Shown: in pieces, positions 3,271 to 18,733 of the stretch
Layout of the letters: every line of letters begins with the position of its first letter
How positions within the stretch are numbered: the stretch's first letter is position 1
NCBI GenBank assembly: GCA_040758355.1
Contig: JBFLWF010000036.1
Location: 1 to 18,921, forward strand
Length of the DNA stretch: 18,921 nucleotides
DNA from: Nitrospirota bacterium
Lineage (GTDB): Bacteria > Nitrospirota > Thermodesulfovibrionia > Thermodesulfovibrionales > Dissulfurispiraceae
Direction: 5' to 3'
Translations under genes and position numbers: made by a program
The notes under the pieces: model-generated
Databases searched by the model: none
Seen by the model: the letters and a program-made list of their open reading frames with translations, nothing else
What the model was told of the DNA's origin: nothing

Positions 3271-3888
3271 TCATTGTGCCTTAGGCAATGACCATTCTAC
3301 AAGCTTTACAGCAATTTCTTTTGCATGCCATGCAATATTCTTTATTGCATCAACCATGTTTATATATATAGATGACGCTACAGGGAGACACAATCCCTCG
3401 ATCAACCTCTCTTCGTGAAGCGTTGCATATTCTGTCGCCCTCTTTACTATACCCACCTCTGATTCCTCCACATATCTCCTCAGAATTGTATTTCTTGCAA
3501 GTATCATGTCTGCCGTCGGCCTCAGGACATCAATAAGCCTCTGAAGGAGAAATGTGATTTCCGTGACTGCCTTATCGCTGAAGAGTATGTTGTCCTTTAT
3601 CTTTTTGTCCATGAACTCCGTTAGTTTTTCGATATTCTCGCCGATCCTCAGGAGGTGTACAGGGATGGAGACGTACGGCTTCAGTTCGGGATTGTCCCGT
3701 GCCAGTTCGGCAACCTTCTTTGTGAGCTGGGCCTCTGCTTTTTTAATGGCCTCTACCTTTGAACCACAGTCCTTTAATGGTTTTGAAGAATTATAAATAA
3801 ATGCGGTTTGCAAAAAAGACATGCAATTTTCTTCATTGCTTGCCATATCATACATTGCCTTCAATAATTCCTTGACCTCCTCTTTCAT
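3271..3888 (-). CDS. PhoU-like helical domain protein (similar to the soluble C-terminal part of Na/Pi cotransporters)
   Basis: Start reassigned to ATG 3888 (MKEEVKELL), which follows SD AAGGAGG. Motifs LLRIGENIE, LFSDKAVTEI and HEERLIEGLC...IY...IKNIAWHA resemble PhoU repeats. Confidence 0.72.
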   Translation of the reverse strand: MKEEVKELLKAMYDMASNEENCMSFLQTAFIYNSSKPLKDCGSKVEAIKKAEAQLTKKVAELARDNPELKPYVSIPVHLLRIGENIEKLTEFMDKKIKDNILFSDKAVTEITFLLQRLIDVLRPTADMILARNTILRRYVEESEVGIVKRATEYATLHEERLIEGLCLPVASSIYINMVDAIKNIAWHAKEIAVKLVEWSLPKAQ

Positions 3889-3951
3889 GGCTTTTCCCTC
3901 CTTCTGTATTTTTTTAAAGCATATCAGATTGTATGACCTTCTGCAAGGATG

Positions 3952-3960
3952 TGCTAAAAT
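3952..3960 (+). promoter_or_regulatory. Putative extended -10 promoter for the first HDOD gene
   Basis: TGcTAAAAT about 32 nt upstream of ATG 3993, in the divergent intergenic region. Confidence 0.4.
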
Positions 3961-3992
3961 AGTAAAAACAGCAAAAGATGGGGATGTAACCA

Positions 3993-4829
3993 ATGGATGC
4001 ATGGACATTGCGCAGTAAGATCGAAAATATAGACAACCTTCCGACAATTCCTCCTGTCCTGAGAAATCTGCTAAACATTATAGAAGATCCACAGGTTTCT
4101 CTCAGCGAGGTAGGCAATTTCATACTGAAAGACCCGGCCCTCACGTCAAGGATACTCAGGGTGGTTAATTCACCGATCTACGGCTTCCCCGGCAGGATAT
4201 CCACGATAAGCCAGGCATTGATACTACTCGGTCTGAATGTTGTAAAGGGAATGCTCTTGGGAGTTTCTGTCTTTGATGTTATGAAAAAGGTGATGGTCGG
4301 GCTTTGGGAGCACTCTATTGGATGTGCTGTTACTGCACGGATAATTTCTCAGAGAAAGGCATCGATTTATCTTGAGGAGGTTGCTGTTGCAGCCCTGCTT
4401 CACGATATAGGGAAGGTGGTCCTTGGTTTGAGATTTTCTGACGAATATAAAAAGGCGCTGAAGGAGGCAGAGAAGAAGGGTATTTTTGTATTCGACTCGG
4501 AAAGGAAGCAATTTAGTGTGGACCATGCTACCGTGGGGGCATGGCTTACAGGGAAATGGAAATTCCCCAGGAGTCTGGTCGAGGTTATAGAATACCACCA
4601 TAAACCCCATCTCTCGAAGAATGTCCCTGTGCAGGCTGCAATAGTGCACCTTTCCGATATTCTTGTGCGCGCAAAGGGGTTCGGCTTTGCAGGCGATAAC
4701 TTTGTGCCTGCGATACATCCCTCTGTATTTGAGATGCTTGACCTTACAGAAACCGATATAAAAGACATACTCGATGAGATGGAAGACTCCTTCGGCCACA
4801 TAGAGGATATTCTCCTCATTGACTTATAA
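3993..4829 (+). CDS. HDOD domain protein (copy 1)
   Basis: Motifs LPTIP, DPALTSRILRVVNSPIYG, LWEHS, ALLHDIGK, DHA-VGAWL--KW-FP, YHH and VHLSD. Confidence 0.92.
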   Translation: MDAWTLRSKIENIDNLPTIPPVLRNLLNIIEDPQVSLSEVGNFILKDPALTSRILRVVNSPIYGFPGRISTISQALILLGLNVVKGMLLGVSVFDVMKKVMVGLWEHSIGCAVTARIISQRKASIYLEEVAVAALLHDIGKVVLGLRFSDEYKKALKEAEKKGIFVFDSERKQFSVDHATVGAWLTGKWKFPRSLVEVIEYHHKPHLSKNVPVQAAIVHLSDILVRAKGFGFAGDNFVPAIHPSVFEMLDLTETDIKDILDEMEDSFGHIEDILLIDL

Positions 4830-5205: not shown

Positions 5206-6042
5206 ATGGACATACAGGCGCTGCGCAGTCAGATCGAGAGAATAGACACTCTTCCCACGATACCAAGCGTTTTGAGAAAGCTTCTGGGCGTCATCGAGAA
5301 TCCAAGGATTTCCTTGAACGAAATAGGCAGTTTCATATCAAACGACCCTGTTCTTACATCACGGGTCCTTAAGGTGGTTAATTCGCCTGTTTACGGCTTT
5401 CCCGGCAGGATATCCTCTGTAAGCCAGGCATTGATACTCCTTGGTCTGAATGTTGTAAAAGGAATGCTCTTAGGAGTCTCTGTGTTTGAGGCGATGCAGA
5501 AGACCATGGTCGGTCTCTGGGAGCACTCCCTGGGCTGTGCTGTGACTGCAAGGATAATCGCAAAGAAAAAGGAATTGAAGGAGCCTGAAGAGGTATCTGT
5601 CGCAGCACTCCTCCATGACATAGGGAAGGTTGTTCTGGGATTGAAGTTCCCTGACGAATACAAAAAGATTATGTCAGATGCAGAGACAAAGGACATTTTT
5701 ATATTCGATGCGGAGAAGAACTATTTCGGCATCAATCATGCCGATGCAGGGGCGTGGATCGCCCAGAAATGGAATTTTCCCAGAAGTCTCGTTGAAGTTA
5801 TAGAATACCACCACAAACCCCACCTGTCCAAAAATGTAGCCATGCAGACAGCTATAGTGCACCTTTCGGACATCCTTATAAGGGCAAAGGGATTCGGCTT
5901 TGCAGGCGATAACTCTGTGCCGGCAATTAATAACGCTGCGTGGCAAATGCTTAATCTGTCGGAAGCAGATGTAAAGGATATACTCGATGAGATGGAAGAC
6001 TCCTTATCCCAGGCAGAGGACTTCCTTCTTTCCGATGAATAA
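5206..6042 (+). CDS. HDOD domain protein (copy 2, paralog of 3993-4829)
   Basis: Same motifs and same length (278 aa) as copy 1; aligns without gaps. Confidence 0.92.
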   Translation: MDIQALRSQIERIDTLPTIPSVLRKLLGVIENPRISLNEIGSFISNDPVLTSRVLKVVNSPVYGFPGRISSVSQALILLGLNVVKGMLLGVSVFEAMQKTMVGLWEHSLGCAVTARIIAKKKELKEPEEVSVAALLHDIGKVVLGLKFPDEYKKIMSDAETKDIFIFDAEKNYFGINHADAGAWIAQKWNFPRSLVEVIEYHHKPHLSKNVAMQTAIVHLSDILIRAKGFGFAGDNSVPAINNAAWQMLNLSEADVKDILDEMEDSLSQAEDFLLSDE

Positions 6043-6973
6043 TCTAAAGACGGTTGTAGTCATATCCAGAGACATGGTCTTAACGAGCATTGTCGACAGG
6101 CTACTTAAAGACTCCTACATGGTTGCCGACTTTTCGAATATCCAGTCTTCGCTTGATTATATCTACGCCTCCATTCCCGACCTGATGATCATAGATATTG
6201 CCATGGATGATGCCTTTGCCATTACCATATTGAACGAAATGAAAAGCGATCCCATATTCGGCAGACTCCCTGTCCTTGCCATATTCGAGGATCAGTTTGT
6301 TATCCCGAAGTGGGACCACCTGCTCGTTGACGACTATGTCAGGAGGTCATGCCTTGAACTCGAGCTGTTGGCAAAAGTGAGCTTATGCATGCACAGGGCT
6401 GAAAGGATGGTCGAGGTTAATCCACTGACAAGGCTCCCCGGGAACATTGCGATAATCAAGCAGATACAGAGAAGACTGGACAATAACGAGGTTTTTGCGC
6501 TTGCCTATGCAGACCTCGATTATTTCAAGCCATATAATGACAGGTACGGTTTCAGCCGTGGCGATGAGGCTTTGAAAATGCTCGGGCGCCTTATTCTGAA
6601 CACTGTCAAGGAAAATCAGGCACAAGGCAGTTTTGTCGGACATATAGGCGGTGACGATTTTGTGTTTATGATGGATGTAGAGCATATCGAAGAAACTGCC
6701 GGAGAAATTATAGATAACTTCAATAAGATAATACCTACCTTTTATGATCCGGAGGACAGGGCAAGGGGCTTCATAGAATCCGTTGACAGGGAGGGGAATA
6801 AAAAGACATTCCCTCTTATAGGCATTTCAATAGGGGCAGCCCATAACAGGTTCAGGAAGTTCTCTCACTACGGCGAGATAGCGGAAGTGGCATCGGAAAT
6901 GAAAAAATACGCCAAGTGTGCAGGAGGCGGTTGTTTTAAGATGGACAAGAGGCACCACGAATTTGTGAATTAA
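6035..6973 (+). CDS. Atypical receiver domain + GGDEF (diguanylate cyclase-like) protein
   Basis: Likely start is ATG 6035 (MNNLKTVVV), overlapping the HDOD2 stop. Receiver-like PDLMIIDIAM, then NPLTRLPGN, DLDYFKPYNDRYGF-RGD, GHIGGDDF and ISIG. Confidence 0.88.
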   Translation: MNNLKTVVVISRDMVLTSIVDRLLKDSYMVADFSNIQSSLDYIYASIPDLMIIDIAMDDAFAITILNEMKSDPIFGRLPVLAIFEDQFVIPKWDHLLVDDYVRRSCLELELLAKVSLCMHRAERMVEVNPLTRLPGNIAIIKQIQRRLDNNEVFALAYADLDYFKPYNDRYGFSRGDEALKMLGRLILNTVKENQAQGSFVGHIGGDDFVFMMDVEHIEETAGEIIDNFNKIIPTFYDPEDRARGFIESVDREGNKKTFPLIGISIGAAHNRFRKFSHYGEIAEVASEMKKYAKCAGGGCFKMDKRHHEFVN

Positions 6974-7012
6974 CCCCGTTAGAAAGCAATCAAGCTTTCT
7001 AACGGGGTTAAT
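6969..7012. terminator. Perfect 19-bp inverted repeat between convergent genes (bidirectional terminator / REP-like element)
   Basis: ATTAACCCCGTTAGAAAGC-aatcaa-GCTTTCTAACGGGGTTAAT. The arms contain the TAA stops of both flanking genes. Confidence 0.8.
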
Positions 7013-7283
7013 CAAAGAGCCTTATGATGCTGTCTGCCTTGTTTTCTATGCTCTTTATGCCCTGCGATATGGAATTATATTCGCGTTTGACCCTGTGCAG
7101 TTCGTCCGCAATATTCAAGGCAGTCAGGATTGCCGCCTTAAGGGGTGTTATGTCAGGCGCTGTGGTGTAAACCTCCTTGAGTTTTTCGTCCACAAAATCC
7201 GCAATCTGTTGAATATACTCTGGAGGCGCGTCACCCTTTATTACATACTTTTGTCCAAGGATGTGTACTTCTATGCTGCCCAT
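7008..7283 (-). CDS. zapA: Cell division protein ZapA
   Basis: IEVHILGQKYVIKG...YIQQIADFVDEK...KAAILTALNIADEL followed by a coiled coil. Confidence 0.92.
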   Translation of the reverse strand: MGSIEVHILGQKYVIKGDAPPEYIQQIADFVDEKLKEVYTTAPDITPLKAAILTALNIADELHRVKREYNSISQGIKSIENKADSIIRLFD

Positions 7284-7288
7284 AATCT

Positions 7289-7510
7289 CTATTTAAGCCC
7301 GATTGTTTCAAGCTCGTTCAGCAGGTCTTCTATCTGGTTTTTAATGGACGACTTTTCCATGCCGAGCCTCTCGATTTCCATGTCCTTTAATCTGATCGCA
7401 TCCTCCAGTTCTTCGACCCTTCTTTCGAGCTTCTCTTTTTCTTCTTTTAATGACCTGACCTTTTCGACTGCAATGGCTATTTTCTCATCGAATGTTTTCA
7501 GTGCTTCCAC
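7289..7510 (-). CDS. zapB: ZapB-like coiled-coil cell division protein
   Basis: Entirely coiled-coil small protein directly upstream of zapA, ending IKNQIEDLLNELE. GTG 7510 follows SD GGGAGG; alternative start is ATG 7534. Confidence 0.65.
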   Translation of the reverse strand: MEALKTFDEKIAIAVEKVRSLKEEKEKLERRVEELEDAIRLKDMEIERLGMEKSSIKNQIEDLLNELETIGLK

Positions 7511-7581
7511 GGTAGCCTCCCTGTAGTAGTTCATTGTTTATTGCACGATAAATAATACACAAATTTTACGTGAAAAATAAA

Positions 7582-9627
7582 CTAAAGATTTCCTATGTAT
7601 TTTTTGGCTGCATATACGTCTGTATCTCGGCTTGCCCTCATATATTCGAAATAGGTGGTTAAAACCCTTTTCACATAGTTTCTTGTCTCATCGTAAGGTA
7701 TGTCCTCTATGAACTCATCTATCGTAGTATAGCTGCCCTTTTTCAGCCATTCCCTCACAGCCTCCTCGCCCGCATTGTATGCTGCAATGGCAAGGGGGAT
7801 GGAGTTGAAGGTCTTTACCAGATGTTTCAGGTAGTATGAGCCGATAAGGATATTGGTCTTTGCATCATGGAGCTGACCCGCATTTTTGAGAGCAATTTTG
7901 ACATGCTTATCAAATTTATGAGCAGTAGATGGCATGAGCTGCATTAATCCAAGTGCGCCGGCAATAGACCGTGCATCGGCATCAAACCTCGACTCCTCCC
8001 GCATGACCGATATGATTAAAAGGGGATCGATGCCGTTCCTTCTGGATGCCTCTTCAACCTCCTGTTGAAATGCCATTGGATAAAACAGATCATGGATATC
8101 TTCGCTGTATTGAACCTTTGTAACGAGATTTACAGACATCTTGTAATTGCCCAGATTTTTAAGCTGAGAGCTTATATAGATGAGCCTGTCATGGTCAGGG
8201 TTTTTCTTTGTCAGATGCGTTAATTCTGAAACGGCCTCATTGTTCAGTCCAAGCCTTATCAGGATGTCAACCCTCTCAGATGCACGCGACACATGACGGG
8301 TAGAGGTCGGCTGATCCAATCTGTCATTCCGAGCAGGGCGAGGAATCTCGTCTTTATAGATTGCTTCGTCACCATCGCTCCTCGCAATGACATTTTTACC
8401 GGGTGAACTTTTAAGCAGAGACAGAAATCCATAATAGTCCCGGTGAGAGATATTCTTTTTGTGCAGAGATGCCTTGAGTGCGTCCCCCTCTGTTTTTTCC
8501 GCACACTTATTTTTCCAGTACATATATTTTGACCCGCCGTATGTTTGGTTGAGATGGGAAAATACTTCCGATGCATTTTTACAATCACCCCACATGTAGT
8601 AAGTCCATCCCTTTGCCCAGAGTATTTCCTCCTTTTCAGATGGGTACTTTGATAATGTATTGTTAAATATTTCCAATGCCCTTTCGATATTACCGTCCCT
8701 TCTCTGCTTCGAGCCATACGCAATTAATACTGATGCAACCCTCTTGTCTCCTGTCTTTATCAGTTCCTGCAATTCGGACTCGAAGGTCTCCATGTCGCCT
8801 GCCCTGAATACCGACCTTGCCCTCCAGTAGCGGTTATTTACTTCTTTATAAAGTTCCGAGGCCTCTCTATAACGTTTCTGTCTGAAAATGGAGTATGCAA
8901 GCTTTTCAAGTATTTGGGTTTTGAGTTCTTCTCCTGACTCCTTTTTCAGGGCTTCTCTCAAGCATTTTTCTGCTTCACCGAACATCCATGCCTTGTTGAG
9001 GTTTTCGCCCCTTTTTATGAGGTCTTCTGTTGTTATATCGGAGGGAGACAGTTCATGCAGTGCGCTTTTAAAGAGCGGCGATACCGATACATATATATCC
9101 TTGAATATTCTTTTTGCCTTTTCTGTTTCGCCATTTTCCTTGAGCAATGAGGCATATGCATATTTCATATTTAGCTCTGAAGGATAATCCTTTACAAAGC
9201 CTTCGAGGAGCTTGATTAAATTCCCGTCATTTTTCTTTTTGGCGAGCTCTATCTCTTTTATGCGGACATTTTTTATCAGGGGGGAATCCTTGAATCGCTC
9301 TTTAACTGTTCTCAAGTCGGCAATTGCCCTGTCCATATCCCCTCTGTCCTCATACGCCCTTGCCCTCCAGAGGAGCGCATAGTCGCCTAATACCGGCAAT
9401 TTTTCATAGGCTGTTGTTAATTGCGATATTGCACTTTCGTAGTCGCCTTTATCGAGGCTGTTTTTACCATTTAACAGATAATTGGAAGCATCATCCGATG
9501 CAAAGGAAAATGTTGCCAGCAAGGACATAAGCAAAGCCACGGATGACAGAAGACAGAAGATATGGGTCAGGCATGGCGAAAAGAGGCGTCTTTGAGCCAT
9601 GCCTGACTTGTAAGGTCTAAATCTCAT
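7582..9627 (-). CDS. slt: Soluble lytic murein transglycosylase (Slt70-like, TPR superhelix + SLT domain)
   Basis: Signal peptide ending ...LATFSFA-SDD, TPR-like repeats, and SLT motifs REESRF, GLMQLMP, AAYNAG and IPYDETRNYVKRV. Start may be 9600 instead. Confidence 0.9.
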   Translation of the reverse strand: MRFRPYKSGMAQRRLFSPCLTHIFCLLSSVALLMSLLATFSFASDDASNYLLNGKNSLDKGDYESAISQLTTAYEKLPVLGDYALLWRARAYEDRGDMDRAIADLRTVKERFKDSPLIKNVRIKEIELAKKKNDGNLIKLLEGFVKDYPSELNMKYAYASLLKENGETEKAKRIFKDIYVSVSPLFKSALHELSPSDITTEDLIKRGENLNKAWMFGEAEKCLREALKKESGEELKTQILEKLAYSIFRQKRYREASELYKEVNNRYWRARSVFRAGDMETFESELQELIKTGDKRVASVLIAYGSKQRRDGNIERALEIFNNTLSKYPSEKEEILWAKGWTYYMWGDCKNASEVFSHLNQTYGGSKYMYWKNKCAEKTEGDALKASLHKKNISHRDYYGFLSLLKSSPGKNVIARSDGDEAIYKDEIPRPARNDRLDQPTSTRHVSRASERVDILIRLGLNNEAVSELTHLTKKNPDHDRLIYISSQLKNLGNYKMSVNLVTKVQYSEDIHDLFYPMAFQQEVEEASRRNGIDPLLIISVMREESRFDADARSIAGALGLMQLMPSTAHKFDKHVKIALKNAGQLHDAKTNILIGSYYLKHLVKTFNSIPLAIAAYNAGEEAVREWLKKGSYTTIDEFIEDIPYDETRNYVKRVLTTYFEYMRASRDTDVYAAKKYIGNL
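8322..8392. repeat. Palindromic REP/RPE-like element lying in frame within slt
   Basis: TGTCATTCCGAGCAGGGCGAGGAATCT...AGATTGCTTCGTCACCATCGCTCCTCGCAATGACA; translated as VIARSDGDEAIYKDEIPRPARND. Confidence 0.75.
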
Positions 9628-10720
9628 TGATCTCCTTGTATTCGCTACCCAGCGAATCTGCCAATGCCTTGTTTACAATGTGTCCCGTATAAGTATTAAG
9701 CGAACTTCTTATTATGGGGTCTTCCATTAGTGCCTTTTCAATGCCGTTTTTAGCAATAGTTTTGATATAAGGCAGTGTTGCATTTGTCAGTGCGAGGGTA
9801 GATGTCCTCGGATATGCACCAGGCATATTGGCAACAGTATAATGTATTATACCATCAACTTCATAAACAGGATTGTCGTGGGTGGTTGGCTTTGATGTCT
9901 CTGCACATCCTCCCTGATCAACAGACACATCGATTATAACAGAACCCTTTTTCATAGTCTTTAGCGTCTCTTTTGTTATGAATATAGGCGTCTTCCCTCC
10001 CGGCACAAGGACTGCCCCAATTATAATATCGGCGTTTTTAATCTCTTCCTGTATGTTGTGCATGGTGAGGGGCAGTGTTTTTACCCTTCCCATAAACATT
10101 TCGTCTATCTTTTGCAATCTATCCATACCCCTATTCATGACCACGGTATCCATCCCGAGACCAATGCATACACGGGCTGCGTTTGTGCCCACGACTCCTG
10201 CGCCGAGTATTAATGCCTTTGCAGGGACAACACCACAAACTCCTGTAGGCAGAATGCCTCTGCCGCCATGAATCCTCTGGAGGTAGTACGAACCTACTAT
10301 TGGAGCCATCCTGCCTGCTATCTCACTCATTGGAGCAAGTAGCGGGAGCGTTCCATCTTTCTGAAGGGTTTCGTATCCGAGGGCAGAGATTTTTTTGTTC
10401 AAAAGAAGTTCTGTAAGCTCCCGATTGGGCGCCAGATGGAGATATGTGAATATTGCCTGGCCTTCTCTAATTAAATCATATTCTTGTGGGAGCGGCTCTT
10501 TCACCTTAACTACGAGGTCTGATTTTTTGAATACGGTCTCTCTGTCAACAATATCCGCATCTGCCTTTAGATATTCATCATCAGAAAAGCTGCTGCCTTC
10601 GCCAGCGCTTGTCTCTATGAGGATTGTGTGGCCATCCCTTTTCAGCTCCTCAACACCAAAGGGCGTAATTCCGATCCTGTATTCCTCTTTCTTAATTTCT
10701 TTAGGGATGCCTATTATCAT
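9617..10720 (-). CDS. ald: Alanine dehydrogenase
   Basis: Motifs IGIPKEIK, VKVKEP, FTYLHLA, LLAPMSEIAGR, GAGVVG, DVSVDQGGC, ANMPGA and TSTLALTNAT. Confidence 0.96.
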   Translation of the reverse strand: MIIGIPKEIKKEEYRIGITPFGVEELKRDGHTILIETSAGEGSSFSDDEYLKADADIVDRETVFKKSDLVVKVKEPLPQEYDLIREGQAIFTYLHLAPNRELTELLLNKKISALGYETLQKDGTLPLLAPMSEIAGRMAPIVGSYYLQRIHGGRGILPTGVCGVVPAKALILGAGVVGTNAARVCIGLGMDTVVMNRGMDRLQKIDEMFMGRVKTLPLTMHNIQEEIKNADIIIGAVLVPGGKTPIFITKETLKTMKKGSVIIDVSVDQGGCAETSKPTTHDNPVYEVDGIIHYTVANMPGAYPRTSTLALTNATLPYIKTIAKNGIEKALMEDPIIRSSLNTYTGHIVNKALADSLGSEYKEINEI

Positions 10721-10722
10721 GG

Positions 10723-11922
10723 CTAAAACTGTTTCAAATACTCAATATACGAATTAAAGTTCCTCTTTGTCTCCTCTATACTGTCTCCGCCGAATTTTTC
10801 TAAAAAGGCGTCGGCAACTACAATTGCTGTCATTGCCTCTCCGATAACAGCAGCAGCAGGGACTGCGCATGTATCAGAACGCTCGTATGCAGCCTCAAAA
10901 GGCTCTTTTGTTATTATGTCCACAGATCGCAATGGTTTTCTCAGAGTAGGGATAGGCTTCATTGCTGCTCTGATAACAATCGGCATTCCGTTTGTCATGC
11001 CACCTTCGATTCCTCCGGCATGATTTGTCTTTCTATAAAATCCAGACTGCTGACCGCTGATTGCTGACTGCTGACTGTTATAGAATATCTCATCCATAAC
11101 CTCTGAGCCGAACCTCTCAGCCATTTCAAAACCTGTTCCGATCTCAACTCCCTTTATTGCCTGAATTCCCATCAATGCCTGCGAAAGCCTTCCATCGAGT
11201 CTTTTATCCCACTGTATATGGCTCCCAAGGCCCAAAGGTATATCTGTTGCAATCACTTCAAATACCCCTCCGAGGGTATCTCCATTTTTTACAGCAGTGT
11301 CTATTAATTCCATCATTTTCTTTGACGCATCCTCATCAGGGCATCTTACAGAAGATTCTTCGGTCTTTTTGAAGATTTCTTTGAAATTTGAAATTTGAAA
11401 TTTGAAATTTGAAATTTTTACGTTGCCTATTTGTATCACATAACTTCCGATATTTATTCCGAACTCCAAAAGAAATTTTTTAGCGACTGCACCAACGGCA
11501 ACGCGCATTGCTGTCTCCCTTGCGCTTGAGCGTTCAAGGATATTCCTTATGTCTTTATGACCATATTTTAAAGCGCCTGCAAGGTCTGCGTGTCCTGGCC
11601 TCGGTCTCGTTACAGGAGGGATTGAGCCTTCAAACTTTTCTTCTGATGACATGCCTTCCTGCCAGTTTTTCCAGTCCCTGTTTTCTATGAGAAGTGATAT
11701 GGGAGAGCCTATGGTTTTTCCCCATCTTACGCCGGAGATTATCTCCGCATGGTCGCTTTCGATCTTCATCCTGCCGCCGCGTCCGTATCCGGCCTGTCTT
11801 TTTTTGAGTTCTTTATCGATGTCCTCTGATGATAGAGAAAGCCCTGAAGGTACTCCTTCAATGATGCCCAATAATCCTTTGCCGTGGGATTCGCCTGCTG
11901 TAAGAAATCTGAGCTTATTCAT
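10723..11922 (-). CDS. aroC: Chorismate synthase
   Basis: Motifs LTAGESHG, RPGHAD, ERSSARETA, GGIEGGMTNG, MKPIPTL and ERSD. Confidence 0.97.
   Translation of the reverse strand: MNKLRFLTAGESHGKGLLGIIEGVPSGLSLSSEDIDKELKKRQAGYGRGGRMKIESDHAEIISGVRWGKTIGSPISLLIENRDWKNWQEGMSSEEKFEGSIPPVTRPRPGHADLAGALKYGHKDIRNILERSSARETAMRVAVGAVAKKFLLEFGINIGSYVIQIGNVKISNFKFQISNFKEIFKKTEESSVRCPDEDASKKMMELIDTAVKNGDTLGGVFEVIATDIPLGLGSHIQWDKRLDGRLSQALMGIQAIKGVEIGTGFEMAERFGSEVMDEIFYNSQQSAISGQQSGFYRKTNHAGGIEGGMTNGMPIVIRAAMKPIPTLRKPLRSVDIITKEPFEAAYERSDTCAVPAAAVIGEAMTAIVVADAFLEKFGGDSIEETKRNFNSYIEYLKQF
11045..11079. repeat. Degenerate heptamer tandem repeat (GACTGCT-like x5) within aroC
   Basis: gactgct gaccgct gattgct gactgct gactgtt; encodes NSQQSAISGQQS. 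Confidence 0.85.
11380..11417. repeat. Perfect heptamer tandem repeat (TTTGAAA x5) within aroC
   Basis: Five exact copies at 11380-11414 plus TTT; encodes ISNFKFQISNFK. Confidence 0.9.
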
Positions 11923-11931
11923 GATGTTTTT

Positions 11932-11960
11932 AAGATAACCTAAATAGAGCTTGTCGTCAA
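11932..11960 (-). promoter_or_regulatory. Putative sigma70 promoter of the aroC operon
   Basis: Minus strand TTGACG (11960-11955), 17 nt, TATCTT (11937-11932). It ends 9 nt before the ATG, with no SD. Confidence 0.6.
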
Positions 11961-11979
11961 CAATTTTATTGCTTATAAT
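11951..11979 (+). promoter_or_regulatory. Putative sigma70 promoter of the three-gene cassette
   Basis: TTGTCG (11951-11956), 17 nt, TATAAT (11974-11979). SD GAGGTG precedes ATG 12016. Confidence 0.65.
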
Positions 11980-12015: not shown

Positions 12016-13515
12016 ATGGACACTGCCAATCTATCTTATGTCCTCGCTGCATTTTTGAGGCCCTTTTTGCCCTACCTGATAAAGGGAGAAACCGTACCCG
12101 AGGATTACAGGGGAACGGTTTCCGATTCATGGGAATTGGCAAAAGCAATATGGGACAAGCTCAGTCCGAAGATTGAGGACAGACCAGCTACAGAAGAGGC
12201 TGTGCATGGTGTAGTCATAACTCCATACAATGAAGATGCCCTTGCTGCTCTGCGATTTCAATTAAAGAAACTGCTATCTGATGATTCAGAACTGGCAGAC
12301 GAGCTTATCAGTCTATGGACGGAGGCAATAACCTCCGGGGTAGTGGTAGAAAGAGAGCTTACTGCTGAAAAGTGGTTTGATGTCCCTGGCCAGGATGATG
12401 TGTTTAAAAAACTGGAGATGATACGGCTTTTGAGAACAGGCATGTCTCCAGAACAGGTCGCTAAAGAATCTAATACTACTGTTGAGTACCTTTATAGGTT
12501 AAATGCTGCATTTTCATTAAATGGTGTTTCTGGCATCCTCTCAGGTTCTGACATCAGAAATTGGTTTGACATGTTGAGTAAGGACGATCCAATAATAAGG
12601 AGACTTGAGATGGTACGTCTGCTGAGGTCTGGTACACCTGTAGAAGTGATTGCTAAACAATATGATGCTGTTCCGGAGTACATATACAGGCTTAATGAAA
12701 GGTTCTCAAGAGGTGGAGTTATTGGCATACTGACAGAGGAGGATTTTCAGAAATTTCGTTCAATCTATCCTGAGGTTATCCGCATCTGCACTTACAATCT
12801 TCACGGAACCCATTTAAATAATCTGTTCCGATTCAGGCGCATTGCGCGCGAGATGAGCGCCTTTGACCCTGACCTGTGTGCCTTTCAGGAGGTAATCAGC
12901 GGCAATGGCATCGAAGAGACGAGCGCTCAGATAGCAAGGTGGATGACGCATATGACAGGTTGTTATTACCAAACTCGCTATGCTTATTGTCATCCTTTCA
13001 AGGATAAGTACCCGGAAGGGCTTTCTGTCTCTGCGAAACACCAGATCAAAAATACCCAGATAATAGATTTAAATCGTGGACTCAGAGACGGGCTTGTCCC
13101 GGGCCTTGAACGATACACTGTAGCAATAGAAGTTAAGATATACGGACGCAGGATTATTTTTATCTCTGTGCACTTTGACCATGAAAATCCGAAGATAAGA
13201 CTTGCACAGGCAGAAAAATTATTAAGGGAGCTTGATTCCCTCTACAAGAGAAAAGATTACTACGCCCGTATACTGGCAGGGGATTTTAACGATGTGGAGG
13301 ATTCCCCTGTCATGGATTTTCTGAGGGAAAATGGATATAAAGATGCTTACAGGCATTGCCACCCCACCGGAGGCAATACATTTGATGCTGTAACTCCTTA
13401 CAAACGTATTGATTATATAATGGTAAAGGGAAATGTGAATTTCCTCTCAGCAGAATTGATTCTCAAGGACCCCAAATTGAGCGATCATATTGGGGTTTTT
13501 GCTGTAATAAAGTAG
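12016..13515 (+). CDS. Multidomain protein: Bell-like helical N-terminal domain + two HTH repeats + EEP (endonuclease/exonuclease/phosphatase) domain
   Basis: EEP motifs TYNLHG, DLCAFQEV, SVHFD, ILAGDFND, NTF, RIDYI and SDH are all intact. Two ~63-aa repeats WFD...LEM(I/V)RLLR(T/S)G...(V/I)AK...EY(L/I)YRLN..FS..GV.GIL. N-terminus PFLPYLIK...AKAIWDKL...P.NEDALAALRFQLKKLL..D.ELADEL. Confidence 0.85.
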   Translation: MDTANLSYVLAAFLRPFLPYLIKGETVPEDYRGTVSDSWELAKAIWDKLSPKIEDRPATEEAVHGVVITPYNEDALAALRFQLKKLLSDDSELADELISLWTEAITSGVVVERELTAEKWFDVPGQDDVFKKLEMIRLLRTGMSPEQVAKESNTTVEYLYRLNAAFSLNGVSGILSGSDIRNWFDMLSKDDPIIRRLEMVRLLRSGTPVEVIAKQYDAVPEYIYRLNERFSRGGVIGILTEEDFQKFRSIYPEVIRICTYNLHGTHLNNLFRFRRIAREMSAFDPDLCAFQEVISGNGIEETSAQIARWMTHMTGCYYQTRYAYCHPFKDKYPEGLSVSAKHQIKNTQIIDLNRGLRDGLVPGLERYTVAIEVKIYGRRIIFISVHFDHENPKIRLAQAEKLLRELDSLYKRKDYYARILAGDFNDVEDSPVMDFLRENGYKDAYRHCHPTGGNTFDAVTPYKRIDYIMVKGNVNFLSAELILKDPKLSDHIGVFAVIK

Positions 13516-13531
13516 TAAGCAAGGGTTGTTT

Positions 13532-15154
13532 ATGTCTCATCCTGAATACTTTGTTCTTGCCTATCAATGGGATCATAATTGCCATAACCTGATGCAGTCC
13601 ATCAGGAGAAAATTTCAACATATGATATCTGAACTTGACGAGCTAAGGTATCAGGATGCATGGGATATGGAATCCCTTTTAAATTACTATAAGAAGTGGC
13701 ACTACAATAGGGAACTCTACCACCTCACAATCAATAATATAGACAGAAAACAATTTGTAATAAACTCCCTCGGATACAGGGGCTATGGAGTTAATAAGGA
13801 TCTGCTCGGGGCACTGGAGGCCATTAAGAATGAATATGCAGGCCATGCTTATTGGCTGATGGGAGAGAGATTTAAAAGACATATAGACTTTACAAAAAGG
13901 ACAATATACCTGCCGCAGGAACTTATTGATTCGATGGATTCTCACTATATAATCACAGAGCTGTGCAAAAAACTAAGATGGAATCCTGAAGAAAACATTC
14001 CCAGAGCGGCATATCCTGTAGGTTTAAATCCCGGCCATTATTTCCATGTTATGGGAGGAACCCCATGGCCGGTCAATACTGCCATTTTTCAGAAGCTATT
14101 TTTAAATCTTGGCAACTCCTCGATGACGCTTATGAAAGGCAGCATGGGTTACCATAATGTCCTTCCACATCGGGATTTAAAGATTATAGGCAATAGAAAC
14201 TTTATTGATATATATAAAGAGATATTTTCAAGCCTCCATAACTTTACTGCCATAGGCATCGATCTGTTAAAGAGGATTCACTATGTTTTATCGAAGGACA
14301 TCACCCCCAATGCAGGCAACTTCAGATCCCATGATTTTCATGACAGAAATGGTGTTACCTTTGATTTTGGTAATTTCCAAAGGGAGATAGGCGATCTGGC
14401 ACATGTCCTGTGGGAGACAGGACAGAGCTTTCACCATATAGATGACTTTATCTATAACCTGTCCAGGTCTTACTATATGTTCATAGGCATACATCCTTTC
14501 TGGGATTCGAATGGAAGAGTTGGCAAATGCTTTTTAAATTATATGTTCCTTAAAAAGGGGATACCGCCTGTAAGTTTCAAAGATGAAGACGAGGTATTTG
14601 CCCTGCCTCGGTATGGAGGCAGTATGAAGGATATGCATGATTATATCAAGATGAGGGTTATGAGGGCGGTGGATTCTTACTTCTACGAAAAATGGAAAAT
14701 GGAACATTTTGGACTTTTCACTAAAAGGATTTACAATGTCTCTTTTGATTCCGGATTCCATTTCAGGCAGATTGATGACAGGCCTCGCAAGCTGGAGGTG
14801 AATTTTAACGCCTATCTGATAGATGACAGCAATCCATCGAGCTGGCAATACCAGGGTCAGTGTAGAGTAGTTTTTCCCAGCGAGCATCTACTGTACAATA
14901 TGACCATTTACTGCGGTTTTTCCTATGGCCGGCGTGGGGAATGGGAGCATGTTTTTAGCCCCAAGAATAATTTTTTCATAAAGGAGATAAAATCTGAGAC
15001 CTCGGGGGTAAGGGTATTTGATGTGAGCTTTGTAGTAGAACTAAGAGATGTACATTACAATTATGATTATTTCAACTGCTGTGTGGTCTCTCACGAAGGC
15101 GGGCGCATATTTAATAATAATGGTCTGAATTATTCGTATAGGATAGAAAAGTAG
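13532..15154 (+). CDS. Fic/DOC-domain protein with long uncharacterised N-terminus and possible C-terminal carbohydrate-binding module
   Basis: LLKRIHYVL...AGNFR...IHPFWDSNGRVGKCFLNYMFLKKGIPP (motif at 14492-14527). Start is ATG 13532 or TTG 13526. The C-terminus ends FNCCVV...IFNNNGLNYSYRI. Confidence 0.85.
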   Translation: MSHPEYFVLAYQWDHNCHNLMQSIRRKFQHMISELDELRYQDAWDMESLLNYYKKWHYNRELYHLTINNIDRKQFVINSLGYRGYGVNKDLLGALEAIKNEYAGHAYWLMGERFKRHIDFTKRTIYLPQELIDSMDSHYIITELCKKLRWNPEENIPRAAYPVGLNPGHYFHVMGGTPWPVNTAIFQKLFLNLGNSSMTLMKGSMGYHNVLPHRDLKIIGNRNFIDIYKEIFSSLHNFTAIGIDLLKRIHYVLSKDITPNAGNFRSHDFHDRNGVTFDFGNFQREIGDLAHVLWETGQSFHHIDDFIYNLSRSYYMFIGIHPFWDSNGRVGKCFLNYMFLKKGIPPVSFKDEDEVFALPRYGGSMKDMHDYIKMRVMRAVDSYFYEKWKMEHFGLFTKRIYNVSFDSGFHFRQIDDRPRKLEVNFNAYLIDDSNPSSWQYQGQCRVVFPSEHLLYNMTIYCGFSYGRRGEWEHVFSPKNNFFIKEIKSETSGVRVFDVSFVVELRDVHYNYDYFNCCVVSHEGGRIFNNNGLNYSYRIEK

Positions 15155-15162
15155 AGTGGACA

Positions 15163-16782
15163 ATGAAGAAAAAATTGGCGGCAGAGGAGTTTGCCCATCC
15201 TTCATATAAATGGATAGGGGAAAGACGGTTTGTAATAAATACACAGAACTGGCATATCTCAAACTTCCCCGGTGGAATCGGTTTTTCCTTTTACAACTAT
15301 TCCAATGAAAAGGCATTGAAAGTAATCCTTAAAGTATACAGGGAAGACGGCGCCTGCGAATTCTATATAGTTGACACCTATTACTGCGGCGAATGGGGAG
15401 ACATTTGGCAGAAGTGGCAGACGCACAGGCTTCCCCTTTTTCCTTATGAAAGCTGTCACCGACGCATAAAATATATCACATTCTCTTATATAATCCACAA
15501 GGATGGCAGATCGATTCCATCAAAGTACGACTATAAATTTGCCACCCTCGATGACTTTCATAAAGGATGGATTGATCTCAGTGACTTCCATGACCCGTAT
15601 TTCAAAACAGAAAATAACTACTCCACATGTGAACTCAATCAGGAGGAATTACAGCAGGCGCTGAAAAGGATAAATAACGAATACGATAACCTCCCCATTC
15701 GCCCCTTCTTTACAAGAGGCAATACATGGGATACAGGTCATCCCGTCCACGAAATACACAGGCATATAGATTGGACTATAGAACGCAAAAGGAATGACCG
15801 CAGAGGCAGGCATTATATACTGATTGCAATGTTCGACTTCGATAATTATCATGTGGCAGAACATCTTATTTATGCAAAGAACAATGGTATCGATATAGAG
15901 TGTATTGCTGATTGGGCTTCCATAAGTTCTATGAACTGCACAGAAAATGTTGCGAGGATGAGACGTGCAGGGATTCCCATATATGGTGTAGTGCGAAACA
16001 CCCCGTGCAATTCATCGGAAGGCATTGCGAGCATGCATACAAAGTTTATCATCTTTGACGGAGAAATAGTCCATTCAGGCTCATACAATCTGCATTTTCA
16101 CCTCTGGGGCGGAAACTGGGAAAACGGGCTTGTTTATTACTCAAGGGATTTTGCCCTCCTTTACTCAAACATTTATAATGCCATAAGGGGAGGAGTTATA
16201 CAGAGACTGCATGTCGATCCACAGGAACGATATAACCTCTACTACAGTTTCGGCAGTTATTACACGTCATGGAGAGACTATTACCGGCCGCAGGATGCCA
16301 TTATAACAGAGATAAACAACGCAAGACATTCTATAATTGTGGCCATGTTCGATATTGACCATCTTACAGGTATATCATCCCACGATAGTCATGAAACCGA
16401 TGTAATAACAGCCCTTATCAATGCAAGGAATAGGGGGGTCAGGGTAAGGATAATAATGAATGGAATGGTCACCCATACCGGGCCTCTGCCGGAGCCGTGG
16501 GATAGGGATTTTCGCAGGCCATTAAAGGACCCTATCCAGCGGCTTAAAGACGCGTGGATGGAGGTTACTTACGTTTATTACTGGGAGAGCATATACTCTC
16601 CTTTACATCATAAGTTTGCGGTTTTTGATAATTACACGGTCATAACCGAGTCCTGCAACTGGTGTAGAGTAAGCACTTATTCGGATGAGGTCCTTTCAGT
16701 AATAAAGGACAGAAGAATAGCCATGGAGTTTATAAACGAGGCTGACAGGCTATGCAGATCCTTCAGACTTGGATGGGAATAG
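15163..16782 (+). CDS. Phospholipase D superfamily protein with two HKD motifs (Nuc-like) and an unknown N-terminal domain
   Basis: MHTKFIIFD...SGSYN (from 16036) and LHHKFAVFD...TESCN (from 16606). Also LIYAKNNGIDI, LINARNRGVRV and IxxAMF strands. No signal peptide or TM helix is evident. Confidence 0.88.
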   Translation: MKKKLAAEEFAHPSYKWIGERRFVINTQNWHISNFPGGIGFSFYNYSNEKALKVILKVYREDGACEFYIVDTYYCGEWGDIWQKWQTHRLPLFPYESCHRRIKYITFSYIIHKDGRSIPSKYDYKFATLDDFHKGWIDLSDFHDPYFKTENNYSTCELNQEELQQALKRINNEYDNLPIRPFFTRGNTWDTGHPVHEIHRHIDWTIERKRNDRRGRHYILIAMFDFDNYHVAEHLIYAKNNGIDIECIADWASISSMNCTENVARMRRAGIPIYGVVRNTPCNSSEGIASMHTKFIIFDGEIVHSGSYNLHFHLWGGNWENGLVYYSRDFALLYSNIYNAIRGGVIQRLHVDPQERYNLYYSFGSYYTSWRDYYRPQDAIITEINNARHSIIVAMFDIDHLTGISSHDSHETDVITALINARNRGVRVRIIMNGMVTHTGPLPEPWDRDFRRPLKDPIQRLKDAWMEVTYVYYWESIYSPLHHKFAVFDNYTVITESCNWCRVSTYSDEVLSVIKDRRIAMEFINEADRLCRSFRLGWE

Positions 16783-16831
16783 GTTTAGATTATGATAGAA
16801 TATTAAAAATAAATATTCACGGAAGGAGAAT

Positions 16832-18733
16832 ATGAAAAAGAGAGTTCTTACAGACTTTGATCTCCACCTTATAGGCGAGGGCACGCATTACAAGAATTAC
16901 GAAAAACTCGGAGCCCATGTTGTTGAGGTTAATGGAGCAAAGGGAGTCCACTTTGCTGTCTGGGCGCCTAATGCCAAAGGGGTAAGCGTTATCGGTGATT
17001 TTAATCACTGGGATGGAAAAAAGCATCCAATGAAGCTCCTCGGCGATTCGGGCATATGGGAGATATTTATTCCGGGCCTCGATGAGGGGGAATTATATAA
17101 GTTCGAAGTCAAATCAAAGTACAGGGGCTATAAGGAGCAAAAGGCAGACCCCTTTGCCTTCTATTTTGAGGTGAGGCCAAAGAGCGCTGCCATTGTATAT
17201 AACATAGAAAACAAGCACCAGTGGCAGGATGCTGAGTGGATGGAGATTAGAAGGAAGAAAAACTGGTTCGAATCTCCGGTTACTATTTATGAAGTGCATT
17301 TAGGCTCATGGATGCGTGTGCCAGAAGACAATAACAGGTTCCTTACATACAGAGAACTTGCGGATAAACTGATACCTTATGTCAAGGAACTCGGGTTTAC
17401 ACATATAGAGCTTTTGCCTATTTCAGAGCATCCCCTCGATGCCTCCTGGGGTTACCAGACTATAGGACATTTTGCACCAACGAGCAGGCACGGCAGGCCC
17501 GAAGACCTTATGTATTTTGTTGATAAATGCCACCAGAATGAAATCGGCGTAATAATAGACTGGGTTCCTGCCCATTTCCCGAAGGATGCCCATGGCCTCG
17601 GCTATTTTGACGGCACATGCCTTTATGAACATGAAGACCCGAGGAAGGGCGAACACAGGGATTGGGGAACGCTGATATTTAATTACGGAAGGAATGAAGT
17701 AACAAATTATCTGATCTCAAATGCCCTTTTCTGGCTCGAAAAATACCATATTGACGGATTGAGAGTGGATGCGGTTGCATCAATGCTATATCTCGACTAT
17801 TCAAGAGAACCGGGAGACTGGATACCAAATATCTACGGAGGCAATGAAAACCTCGAGGCAATAGATTTTTTAAAGAAATTCAACGAGGTCGTGCATCAAT
17901 ACCATCCCGGCGTTCTCACAATAGCCGAGGAATCTACGGCATGGACAGGTGTATCAAGGCCGACATACTTAGGCGGACTCGGCTTCAGCATGAAGTGGAA
18001 TATGGGCTGGATGCACGATACTCTGGAATATTTTTCAAAAGACTCTATCTATAGAAAGTACCATGCAAATAATTTGACATTTAGTATGCTCTATGCATTT
18101 ACTGAGAATTTTATTTTGCCCTTTTCCCACGATGAGGTTGTTCATGGCAAAAGGTCAATGCTGGATAAGATGCCGGGCGATATGTGGCAGAAATTCGCAA
18201 ATCTGAGGGCACTTTTAGGATACATGTACGGACATCCGGGGAAAAAACTTCTATTCATGGGATCTGAATTCGGCCAGTGGCGTGAATGGAATTTTGATGA
18301 AAGCCTTGACTGGCATTTGCTGCAACACGAGCCTCATAAAAAATTACAGAGATTTCTCTCTGATTTGAACAATCTTTATATAACAGAACCTGCAATGCAT
18401 GAGGTTGATTTTGAGTGGCACGGCTTTGAATGGATAGACTTCCATGACTCCGACAATAGCGTAATCTCGTTTATCAGAAGGGCAAAGAATCATGACGATT
18501 TCCTCGTATTTGTTTTTAATCTTACGCCGATTCCGAGGTTCGGATACAGGGTAGGGGTTCCGAGAGGCGGGTTTTACAGAGAAATTCTGAACAGCGATTC
18601 AGAGATATACTGGGGAGGCAATATAGGAAACGCCGGCGGTGTCTATGCCGATAATGTACCGTGCCATGCAAGACAATTCTCATTAAACCTCATTCTTCCT
18701 CCATTGTCTGTATTGATACTCAAGCCTGAATGA
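16832..18733 (+). CDS. glgB: 1,4-alpha-glucan branching enzyme (GH13, short N-terminus form)
   Basis: Motifs [66 protein letters not shown] and [18 protein letters not shown]. Confidence 0.97.

Follow-up and report, generated by a model that had tools for sequence, protein, structure and literature searches.

What is the function of three closely spaced genes, coding for enzymes that transfer phosphoryl groups or cleave phosphoesters, directly upstream of a gene for a glycogen branching enzyme? This question is raised by contig JBFLWF010000036.1 of the Nitrospirota bacterium assembly GCA_040758355.1 (Dissulfurispiraceae), which was analysed over its whole length of 18,921 nt (hereafter the window) and is part of a 2.77-Mb, 99% complete genome. 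Between aroC and glgB it carries a cassette encoding a protein with a Bell-like domain, two helix-turn-helix (HTH) repeats and an endonuclease/exonuclease/phosphatase (EEP) domain (gene 1), a Fic enzyme (gene 2) and a phosphodiesterase of the phospholipase D (PLD) superfamily with two HKD motifs (gene 3). We conclude that the cassette is a real, conserved and apparently undescribed three-gene system, and that the evidence favours a role in glycogen biology over one in defence. Taking the two leading models together, the module probably acts at the glycogen particle. That it is a cytoplasmic set of three enzymes adding phosphate to this particle and removing it again, a scheme in which we infer every catalytic step, is a proposal to which we give slightly less than even weight.

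The conservation of the cassette as a unit is the best founded part of this answer. Each of the three proteins matched the same nine of 301 genomes of the phylum, in which the genes are contiguous and in the same order, so their linkage is far above chance; the carriers are the host genome, one of its four congeners and seven of the eight genomes of another family. The same gene order recurs in deltaproteobacteria, Myxococcales and Ca. Xenobia. A genome scan for PLD found 426 relatives, of which 80 were kept (19 close loci and 61 distant ones). In the close GTDB loci (PLD identity 39% or more), hosted by Magnetobacteriaceae, other Nitrospirota, Syntrophorhabdales, unnamed deltaproteobacteria, Myxococcales and Ca. 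Xenobia, Fic adjoins PLD in 15 of the 19, and the remaining four genomes encode a full-length Fic elsewhere, beside EEP in two of them. EEP lies upstream in 28 of the 30 metagenome loci found with Fic; exceptions to the arrangement are loci L111 and L112, without either partner, and L092 and L110, where EEP-Fic has no adjacent PLD. The pairwise identities of the three genes correlate over 24 loci (rho 0.88–0.92, with kin that are not independent), and fusions of Fic with PLD occur in L021, P0358 (59% identity to L021) and P0195 (88%). Apparent fusions in L020 and in the 1628-aa L035 were not counted, as they may be frameshifts or an artefact of the open reading frame (ORF) caller. A preliminary description of the window had proposed an undescribed system of three linked genes. 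Independent occurrence of the homologs was looked for and did not refute the cassette, and no description of it was found in the literature searched, whose scope left out subscription papers and supplements such as gene-neighbourhood tables; the consulted part of a review on prokaryotic alpha-glucans (PMC11046441) has no occurrence of CBM21, phospholipase, laforin, AMPylation or MapP. Some loci depart in layout: L016 (8924–9983) and L100 (11050–12073) carry a two-gene insert (about 167 and 180–188 aa, no Pfam match) between Fic and PLD as well as an EEP-Fic gap of about 1 kb, and just the first gene of this insert is visible in L102 (5156–5656).

The genes around the cassette point to glycogen. 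A glycogen gene lies within 3 kb in 11 of the 39 loci with Fic and PLD, a count that omits the window and L110 and includes a few genomes twice, and all 11 include a branching enzyme, which is of the GH13 type (glgB) in nine and of the non-homologous GH57 type in three, one locus having both. When only loci with at least 2 kb on both sides are considered, a branching enzyme is found within 3 kb in six of 20. Random 4.8-kb stretches of the host genome, a rough null drawn from one genome, have a branching enzyme within the same distance in 0.4% and any glycogen gene in 1.8% of cases; set against this chance level, the neighbourhood supports the glycogen-linked function that the preliminary description had offered as one of two options. 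The position of the branching gene varies, with glgB downstream and co-oriented in the window and in the cassette-bearing congener G114, upstream and co-oriented in L093 and L110, and downstream and convergent in seven loci, while a DUF4912-GH57 pair lies upstream in L015 and L027 and is divergent in L099. The host genome carries glgA, glgC, glgB and GH57 genes, the glgB of the window being its sole full-length copy, and glycogen synthase is present in five of five other carriers tested. The host (G000) has two glgC-like genes (C27:9415–10608 and C2:82366–83541) and branching enzymes of both the GH13 and the GH57 type. Wherever a GH57 branching enzyme adjoins the module (L015, L027, L099 and more than 20 loci of the two-gene form described next), its gene is directly preceded by DUF4912, which may be an uncharacterised glycogen protein.

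The preliminary description had missed that PLD belongs to a larger family, the other branch of which pairs with a different EEP protein and no Fic. The 61 distant relatives are full-length, 34–38% identical and hosted by Methylococcales, Planctomycetes, Kiritimatiellae, Rhodocyclales, Rhizobiales and Chloroflexota. Directly upstream, 55 of 58 testable loci have a gene of about 500 codons, the representative of which consists of two CBM21 repeats and an EEP domain (CBM21x2-EEP). A glycogen gene is found within 3 kb in 25 of the 61 loci (21 of 40 well-flanked ones), often as DUF4912-GH57 directly upstream or as a glgA-glgB-glgC-malQ cluster. None of five genomes with the two-gene form carries a Fic of the cassette family, so a substrate for PLD exists also where Fic is absent. 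In a tree of 45 EEP domains, where maltose 6'-phosphate phosphatase (MapP) was represented by its phosphotransferase system (PTS) operon context and not by the E. faecalis protein, the CBM21x2-EEPs group with three EEPs from operons with PTS, alpha-glucosidase, GH65 (maltose phosphorylase) and pgmB genes (support 100/99). The EEPs of the window type form a clade of their own (100/99), and the tree thus rejects the window EEP as a MapP ortholog. The best PDB match of the domain is 3TEB (E 1e-17), which we take to be a MapP homolog, and five of its homologs are named 'maltose 6'-phosphate phosphatase' by JGI. Since the two types fall in separate clades, PLD is the common core, to which two different EEP lineages were recruited. 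To judge from these relationships, a two-gene form in which a phosphatase of the MapP clade is carried on two CBM21s fits a glucan-phosphate substrate for PLD.

A further likeness not recognised before is that the accessory domains of Fic and PLD resemble starch- or glycogen-binding immunoglobulin (Ig)-like modules. The nearest ESM feature neighbours of the all-beta C-terminal domain of Fic (residues 395–542), whose scores are a lead and not proof, are CBM21 clusters (0.90, 0.89 and 0.88), CBM53 clusters (0.88 and 0.86), the Ig domain of glucan water dikinase (0.87) and unnamed or DUF clusters, and seven of the ten best named matches share a family or clan. The N-N-x-G-x-N-Y motif of the domain aligns to CBM21 repeats (pairwise P 0.001–0.002). 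Site I of the CBM21 of PTG comprises W193, W246, N248 and N253, according to the consulted parts of PMC9582199 and PMC3398936, and the spacing of W473, N530 and N535 in Fic equals that of W193, N248 and N253, as mapped by motif and not by superposition. These Fic residues are kept in 118/118, 101/118 and 117/119 homologs, respectively. The domain is almost confined to this Fic family, with 17 matches at 1e-10 among 1.84 billion representatives, one of them an unrelated repeat protein; the weak matches P0372 and P0373 are repeat proteins and were dropped as spurious. CBMs are absent from the fold lists of Fic, which were obtained with full-length models and thus barely probed this domain. The N-terminal domain of PLD matches the CBM21 of PTG with a Z of 7.2 (also 7.1) and a root-mean-square deviation (rmsd) of 2.6 over 99 aligned residues, and the identity of 16% is the highest among the tied rows, which also include the CBM21s of GM and Rhizopus, N-terminal domains of amylases, and cytokine receptors (Z 7.5). 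A pairwise profile comparison with CBM21 gave a P of 0.012 over 58 columns. That each of these domains is a CBM21-like module tethering its enzyme to alpha-glucan is supported but not proven, by motif and feature likeness for Fic and by the predicted fold for PLD.

In general, Fic enzymes attach nucleoside monophosphates, phosphocholine or phosphate to hydroxyls; phosphodiesters are cut by HKD enzymes via a phospho-histidine, and phosphoesters are hydrolysed by EEP enzymes. The catalytic residues were assessed in sets of 121 Fic, 176 PLD and 108 EEP homologs. The H, F, D, N, G and R of the Fic motif are present in 121/121, and position 334 is R in 83 and K in 38, a second basic residue typical of protein AMPylators that use nucleoside triphosphates. 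The Fic model (pLDDT 92) consists of a helical N-terminal domain, the Fic core and the all-beta domain, and is matched by FICD and BT_2513 with a Z of 18–19 and an rmsd of about 3 over about 220 aligned residues; its flap has the invariant polar residues D270, D273, N275 and T278. In class II Fic proteins an inhibitory helix, (S/T)xxxE(G/N), lies N-terminal of the core. The conserved S-x-T-I-M-K-G at residues 199–205 is one register off this pattern and has Glu before the Gly in 6/121 and Lys or Arg in 107. A Fic toxin-antitoxin pair finds no room for a small antitoxin in the window, with its gaps of 10–16 and 8 nt, and in most loci Fic is flanked by EEP and PLD. A complex prediction of Fic residues 12–397 with full EEP (score 0.00, mark 0.32) is evidence neither way. 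The Fic reading frame is interrupted in L110 (10001–10884), L116 and L020, either by real decay or by sequencing error. For PLD, the model (pLDDT 94) matches 7e0m with a Z of 28.8 and an rmsd of 3.2 over 319 residues. The residues N, E, D-x-N, D and D-H of the EEP superfamily are kept in 106–108 of 107–108 rows, the PF03372 match has an E of 2e-14, and mannosyl-6-phosphatase is also among the PDB matches.

The N-terminal domain of gene 1, called Bell in the preliminary description, has no convincing Pfam family and was found solely on this gene, in five of 201 genomes. Its residues 1–111 are 41% identical to a 147-aa cyanobacterial protein preceding a large ATPase gene, and a 140-aa protein preceding an NB-ARC/TPR gene is 34% identical over 77 aa. 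Bell proteins are short, are encoded before NLR-like genes and have been proposed as a cell-death domain, as given in the consulted part of 10.1101/2020.01.06.895854. The Bell-like nature of the domain is genuine as far as homology to such short proteins, as opposed to the published Bell profile, can establish it, and the earlier Bell-HTH2-EEP architecture thus stands, with Bell backed indirectly by these identities and the other domains by Pfam. The Bell-like domain went undetected in 23 of 108 EEP homologs, some of which may be truncated gene calls. In the two cyanobacterial plasmid pairs (L148:3995–8211 and L149:3995–7855), a short Bell-like gene is combined with a large gene of the ATPase or NB-ARC/TPR type, and the end of the L148 protein is a low-complexity stretch of Asn, Ser and Gly that looks like an amyloid signalling motif.

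In the glycogen-particle cycle, Fic would take AMP from ATP, or glucose-1-phosphate from ADP-glucose, and attach it to a hydroxyl of the glucan, thereby creating a phosphodiester. The HKD enzyme would cut this diester via its phospho-histidine and leave a phosphomonoester, or else take off the whole adduct, and EEP would hydrolyse the phosphomonoester. Such a cycle would tune the branching, solubility or turnover of glycogen, and the Fic-less unit of CBM21x2-EEP and PLD would be an eraser-only repair form. The preliminary description had suggested a writer/eraser circuit, and chemistry of this type is supported; PLD need not be just an eraser, as together with Fic it could complete a phosphorylation. 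We favour this cycle because of the glucan-binding-like modules on Fic and PLD, the fusion of these two enzymes and the presence of two branching-enzyme families nearby. In its furthest-reaching version, the glycogen-tethered Fic nucleotidylates or phosphoglucosylates the polysaccharide itself, the HKD enzyme, likewise tethered, turns the diester into glucan phosphate and EEP erases it, which would amount to a glycogen kinase/phosphatase cycle built of parts unrelated to those of plants and animals, and we put this version forward only tentatively.

Several observations weigh against this proposal. Both CBM assignments are, as sequence families go, below Pfam detection. For Fic, a CBM match was found in 0/34 members with Pfam and in none of the PDB sequences, the global profile alignment to CBM21 failed, the ESM scores lie in a range sometimes reached by shuffled proteins, and the position of PTG W246 is occupied by Ile; for PLD, a Z of about 7 is common to unrelated Ig folds, and there was no usable ESM feature match and no PDB sequence match for the N-terminal domain. 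Fic keeps the second basic motif residue, its nearest folds are protein AMPylators, and the literature searched yielded no Fic enzyme with a polysaccharide as its substrate. The window EEP lies outside the MapP clade and scores just as well against generic EEPs, and the Bell-like and HTH domains are unaccounted for by a glycogen cycle. Fourteen of the 20 well-flanked loci, including most Magnetobacteriaceae, have no glycogen gene within 3 kb, and the loci in these counts are not independent. Finally, three congeners keep glgB without the cassette, which is therefore not needed for glycogen synthesis.

The main rival, which we regard as unlikely, is that Fic, docked on the granule by its CBM21-like domain, AMPylates a glycogen enzyme (GlgB, GlgA or GlgP), and that PLD then cuts the AMP-protein diester and EEP takes the residual phosphate. 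It draws on the same linkage and glycogen evidence as the leading model and agrees with the branching enzyme at all 11 glycogen-adjacent loci, with the full Fic motif including R or K at position 334 in every homolog, with the protein-modifying FICD/HYPE and SoFic as nearest folds, and with the occurrence of the tyrosyl-phosphodiester cleavers Tdp1 (HKD) and TDP2 (EEP) among the fold and sequence matches. However, the GH13 and GH57 neighbours are non-homologous and have a common substrate but no common surface, the PLD family is also kept where this Fic is absent, next to a CBM21x2 sugar phosphatase of the MapP clade, and the invariant polar flap residues may suit a defined small acceptor. A soluble product is improbable as well, although EEP relatives act on small sugar phosphates (3TEB, mannosyl-6-phosphatase and the JGI-named proteins): here Fic would make a nucleotidylated sugar, a maltooligosaccharide or a small signal near the granule, PLD and EEP would degrade it, and the two HTH repeats, which are conserved in most EEP homologs, would couple its level to transcription. 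The polymer-binding-like modules on two of the enzymes point to a polymer instead, and in Ca. Xenobia the EEP of the cassette is a bare domain of 249 aa that lacks both HTH and Bell.

The other option of the preliminary description, an anti-phage or cell-death module, has fared poorly, and we consider it very unlikely. Under this reading, Fic would act as a toxin, PLD would be either a nuclease or a phospholipase, the Bell-like domain would be an effector that damages membranes, and the proximity of glgB would be accidental. It has in its favour that the Bell-like domain is genuine, with stand-alone relatives that precede NLR-like genes, that the distribution is patchy (9/301 genomes, 1/4 congeners), that Fic and PLD domains occur in PADLOC models, and that genes of the AbiL-like, PDC-M38, PDC-S09 or PDC-M68B type lie near four of 26 loci. 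Yet the PADLOC matches of the cassette cover only the generic Fic or HKD cores and none was obtained for EEP, a search of the host genome for NB-ARC (NACHT was not searched) gave no match, and the Bell-like domain goes undetected in some EEP homologs, as stated above. PLD had no match in a plasmid collection and Fic none in a phage collection, the GC content of the cassette is near that of its flanks, no mobility gene was identified in the window, and the divergence from G114 is near that of aroC and ald, while PLD is as conserved as glgB in G106. Among 115 neighbouring proteins of 26 selected loci scanned with PADLOC, plausible defence genes were seen near about four loci (L010, L092, L094 and L104) compared to branching enzymes in ten, and the remaining matches fell on generic ATPases, an ankyrin protein, a cysteine desulfurase encoded next to nifU, and glgB itself. 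An AbiL-like defence pair is located directly downstream of the cassette of Ca. Magnetobacterium casense (L010:11766–13644). Least probable of all is a role for PLD as a phospholipid synthase, lipase or nuclease that has no relation to glycogen, with Fic and EEP as its partners in acting on lipids or nucleic acids. Database names of its homologs (cardiolipin synthase family) and its top folds, which include phospholipases D and PLD3/4 nucleases, speak for this, but the scores are far under the family cut-offs (cardiolipin synthase 22 of 290 bits, NucT 35 of 351), there is no membrane anchor (top 19-residue hydropathy 0.86), and the glycogen context is found in both branches of PLD.

How does the glycogen-particle cycle relate to known systems? 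The eukaryotic dikinases GWD and PWD and the phosphatases laforin and SEX4 likewise combine carbohydrate-binding-like modules with phosphoryl-transfer or phosphatase chemistry, which in the case of the cassette would hypothetically take place on the storage glucan, and the Ig-like domain of GWD is among the ESM neighbours of Fic. The catalytic domains of these enzymes had no Pfam match in the three proteins at E 0.1. The cassette may work like this cycle without sharing its catalytic folds. The glycogen-targeting subunits of PP1 (PTG and GM) also have a CBM21-type module that could bring a modifying enzyme to glycogen; in contrast to them, the cassette has no PP1, and its catalytic domains are fused directly to the candidate modules. 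MapP shares the EEP fold, and both EEP types find their best PDB match in 3TEB, but MapP belongs to a PTS-linked clade, whereas the window EEP has Bell-like and HTH domains and no PTS neighbour. The two-gene unit of methanotrophs and others resembles the cassette in its full-length homologous PLD, the EEP gene upstream and the frequent DUF4912-GH57 and glg neighbours; it differs by the lack, in the five genomes examined, of a Fic of this family and by an EEP of another lineage with its own CBM21 repeats. FICD/HYPE, SoFic and AnkX share the Fic fold (Z 18–19, 16–17 and 12–13) and the complete catalytic motif with gene 2 at 11–18% identity; unlike them, gene 2 has its own helical N-terminal domain, a C-terminal beta domain and, in the genomes tested, always an HKD partner. 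The defence proteins DISARM DrmC, SoFic and PDC-S04 resemble the cassette in a generic HKD or Fic core. All stay under their cut-offs (DrmC at 37 of 133 bits), with partial coverage and none of the partner genes, and no Drm model was among the matches listed for the 115 neighbours. Bell/BASS/NLR systems have a C-terminal amyloid motif and an adjacent NLR, whereas the Bell-like domain of the window runs into HTH repeats and the next gene is Fic.

The features of the locus are collected in the table below.

Table. Positions of the cassette, its domains and motifs, and its flanks in the window
Feature	Position	Strand	Remark
aroC	10723..11922	-	divergent flank of cassette
Promoter-like site toward aroC	11932..11960	-	9/12 matches; in DNA common to cassette-free congeners
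Promoter-like site, TTGTCG-17-TATAAT	11951..11979	+	upstream of cassette; 10/12 consensus matches
Gene 1: Bell-like + two HTH + EEP	12016 (ATG)..13515	+	499 aa
Bell-like N-terminal domain	12016..12345	+	least conserved part of gene 1
Two tandem HTH repeats	12412..12732	+	HTH_7, HTH_23, HTH_29
EEP catalytic domain	12787..13488	+	near-invariant catalytic residues; own clade, outside MapP clade
Gene 2: helical N-domain + Fic core + C-terminal beta domain	13526..15154	+	542 aa
Fic motif H323-P-F-W-D-S-N-G-R-V-G-K334	14492..14527	+	Fic core of gene 2
Fic C-terminal all-beta domain, candidate CBM21/CBM53-like glucan-binding module	14717..15151	+	conserved W473, N530, N531, G533, N535, Y536
Gene 3: N-terminal Ig-like domain + double-HKD PLD-superfamily phosphodiesterase	15163..16782	+	539 aa
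PLD N-terminal beta-sandwich, residues 9-134	15187..15564	+	PTG CBM21 among tied best structural matches
HKD motif 1	16036..16059	+	H292, K294 in 176/176
HKD motif 2	16606..16629	+	H482 in 171/171 rows with residue; K484, D489 in 171/172
Extended -10-like motif TGATAGAATATT	16793..16804	+	before glgB; also in three cassette-free congeners and G114
glgB, GH13 glycogen branching enzyme	16832..18733	+	starts 49 nt after gene 3

The gene models agree with the preliminary description in the three co-oriented ORFs and in their gaps of 10 or 16 nt (genes 1 and 2) and 8 nt (genes 2 and 3). Gene 1 has an alternative start at GTG 12010 (501 aa), and gene 2 starts at TTG 13526 or at ATG 13532 (540 aa). 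Pfam returned the domains named earlier (two HTH and EEP, Fic, and two PLD motifs), and no NCBIfam model matched the three proteins at its cut-off. No 19-residue window of the three proteins exceeds a mean hydropathy of 1.27, in line with the absence of an evident signal peptide by this crude test for signals and membrane segments. The GC content of the cassette is 0.38–0.45, and no telling direct or inverted repeats were found at its ends.

Within the genus, aroC and glgB stand back-to-back in three congeners, with about 70 nt between them, while in G114 the cassette occupies the same site as in the window; all five genomes share the half of the spacer next to aroC. The two congeners nearest by aroC and glgB identity are without the cassette and the more distant G114 has it. 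Identities between the window and G114 are 84% for EEP, 77% for Fic, 83% for PLD, 84–85% for aroC, 86% for ald and 92% for glgB, and those to G106 are 71% for PLD and 70% for glgB. An ancestral cassette with later losses is the simpler reading of these comparisons. The near-consensus promoter described earlier exists as a site upstream of gene 1, with its -10 in cassette-side DNA and its -35 in the aroC-side DNA shared with cassette-free congeners, but promoter-like sites are not enriched (23 found, 17.6 +/- 4.6 in shuffles), so this site alone is not significant. The extended -10-like motif before glgB is kept with or without the cassette, and glgB need not rely on a cassette promoter. In the cassette-free G013, G090 and G172, the glgB start codon follows this motif after just 7 nt, which suggests a leaderless transcript, and the window glgB has a longer spacer with a purine run resembling a ribosome-binding site. 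Upstream of aroC, zapA, zapB and genes for a TPR-SLT lytic transglycosylase and alanine dehydrogenase form an ordinary housekeeping run (7008–10720). It is preceded by a 258-aa ORF without a Pfam match (3271–4047, minus strand), tandem 278-aa HDOD paralogs (3993–4829 and 5206–6042) with a 98-aa ORF lacking a Pfam match between them, and a GGDEF gene (5987–6973) after this pair.

Section 3.3 of a 2026 review (PMC13666283) states that prokaryotes have no known glucan phosphorylation machinery, that E. coli glycogen contains little phosphate, that it is open whether and how prokaryotic glycogen is generally phosphorylated, and that the enzyme putting phosphate on animal glycogen has remained elusive. 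A UDP-Glc:glycogen glucose-1-phosphotransferase was described for animals (Lomako 1993, via PMC13666283) and is of the diester-forming reaction type proposed here for Fic, but according to the same section it has no gene and received no later support, so that a sequence comparison is impossible. According to the consulted part of PMC13011383, branching enzymes, one from Deinococcus among them, have a lower substrate affinity when the glucan carries phosphate; this effect would account for the recurrence of two unrelated branching-enzyme families next to the cassette. With three apparently soluble enzymes whose motifs are intact in their sequences, and for which clear mutants can be made, the cassette would allow a concrete route to glucan phosphorylation to be tried in vitro, and an enzyme set that phosphorylates glucan would also be useful in starch modification. 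Should AMPylation of a glycogen enzyme prove true instead, the cassette would constitute a novel AMPylation circuit directed at glycogen, in which an HKD enzyme is the dedicated eraser. If the glycogen-particle cycle is true, gene 2 would code for the first Fic enzyme with a glycan as its target, the cassette would be the first means by which prokaryotes make glycogen phosphate, and the orphan glucose-1-phosphotransferase activity of animals would gain a precedent at the gene level.

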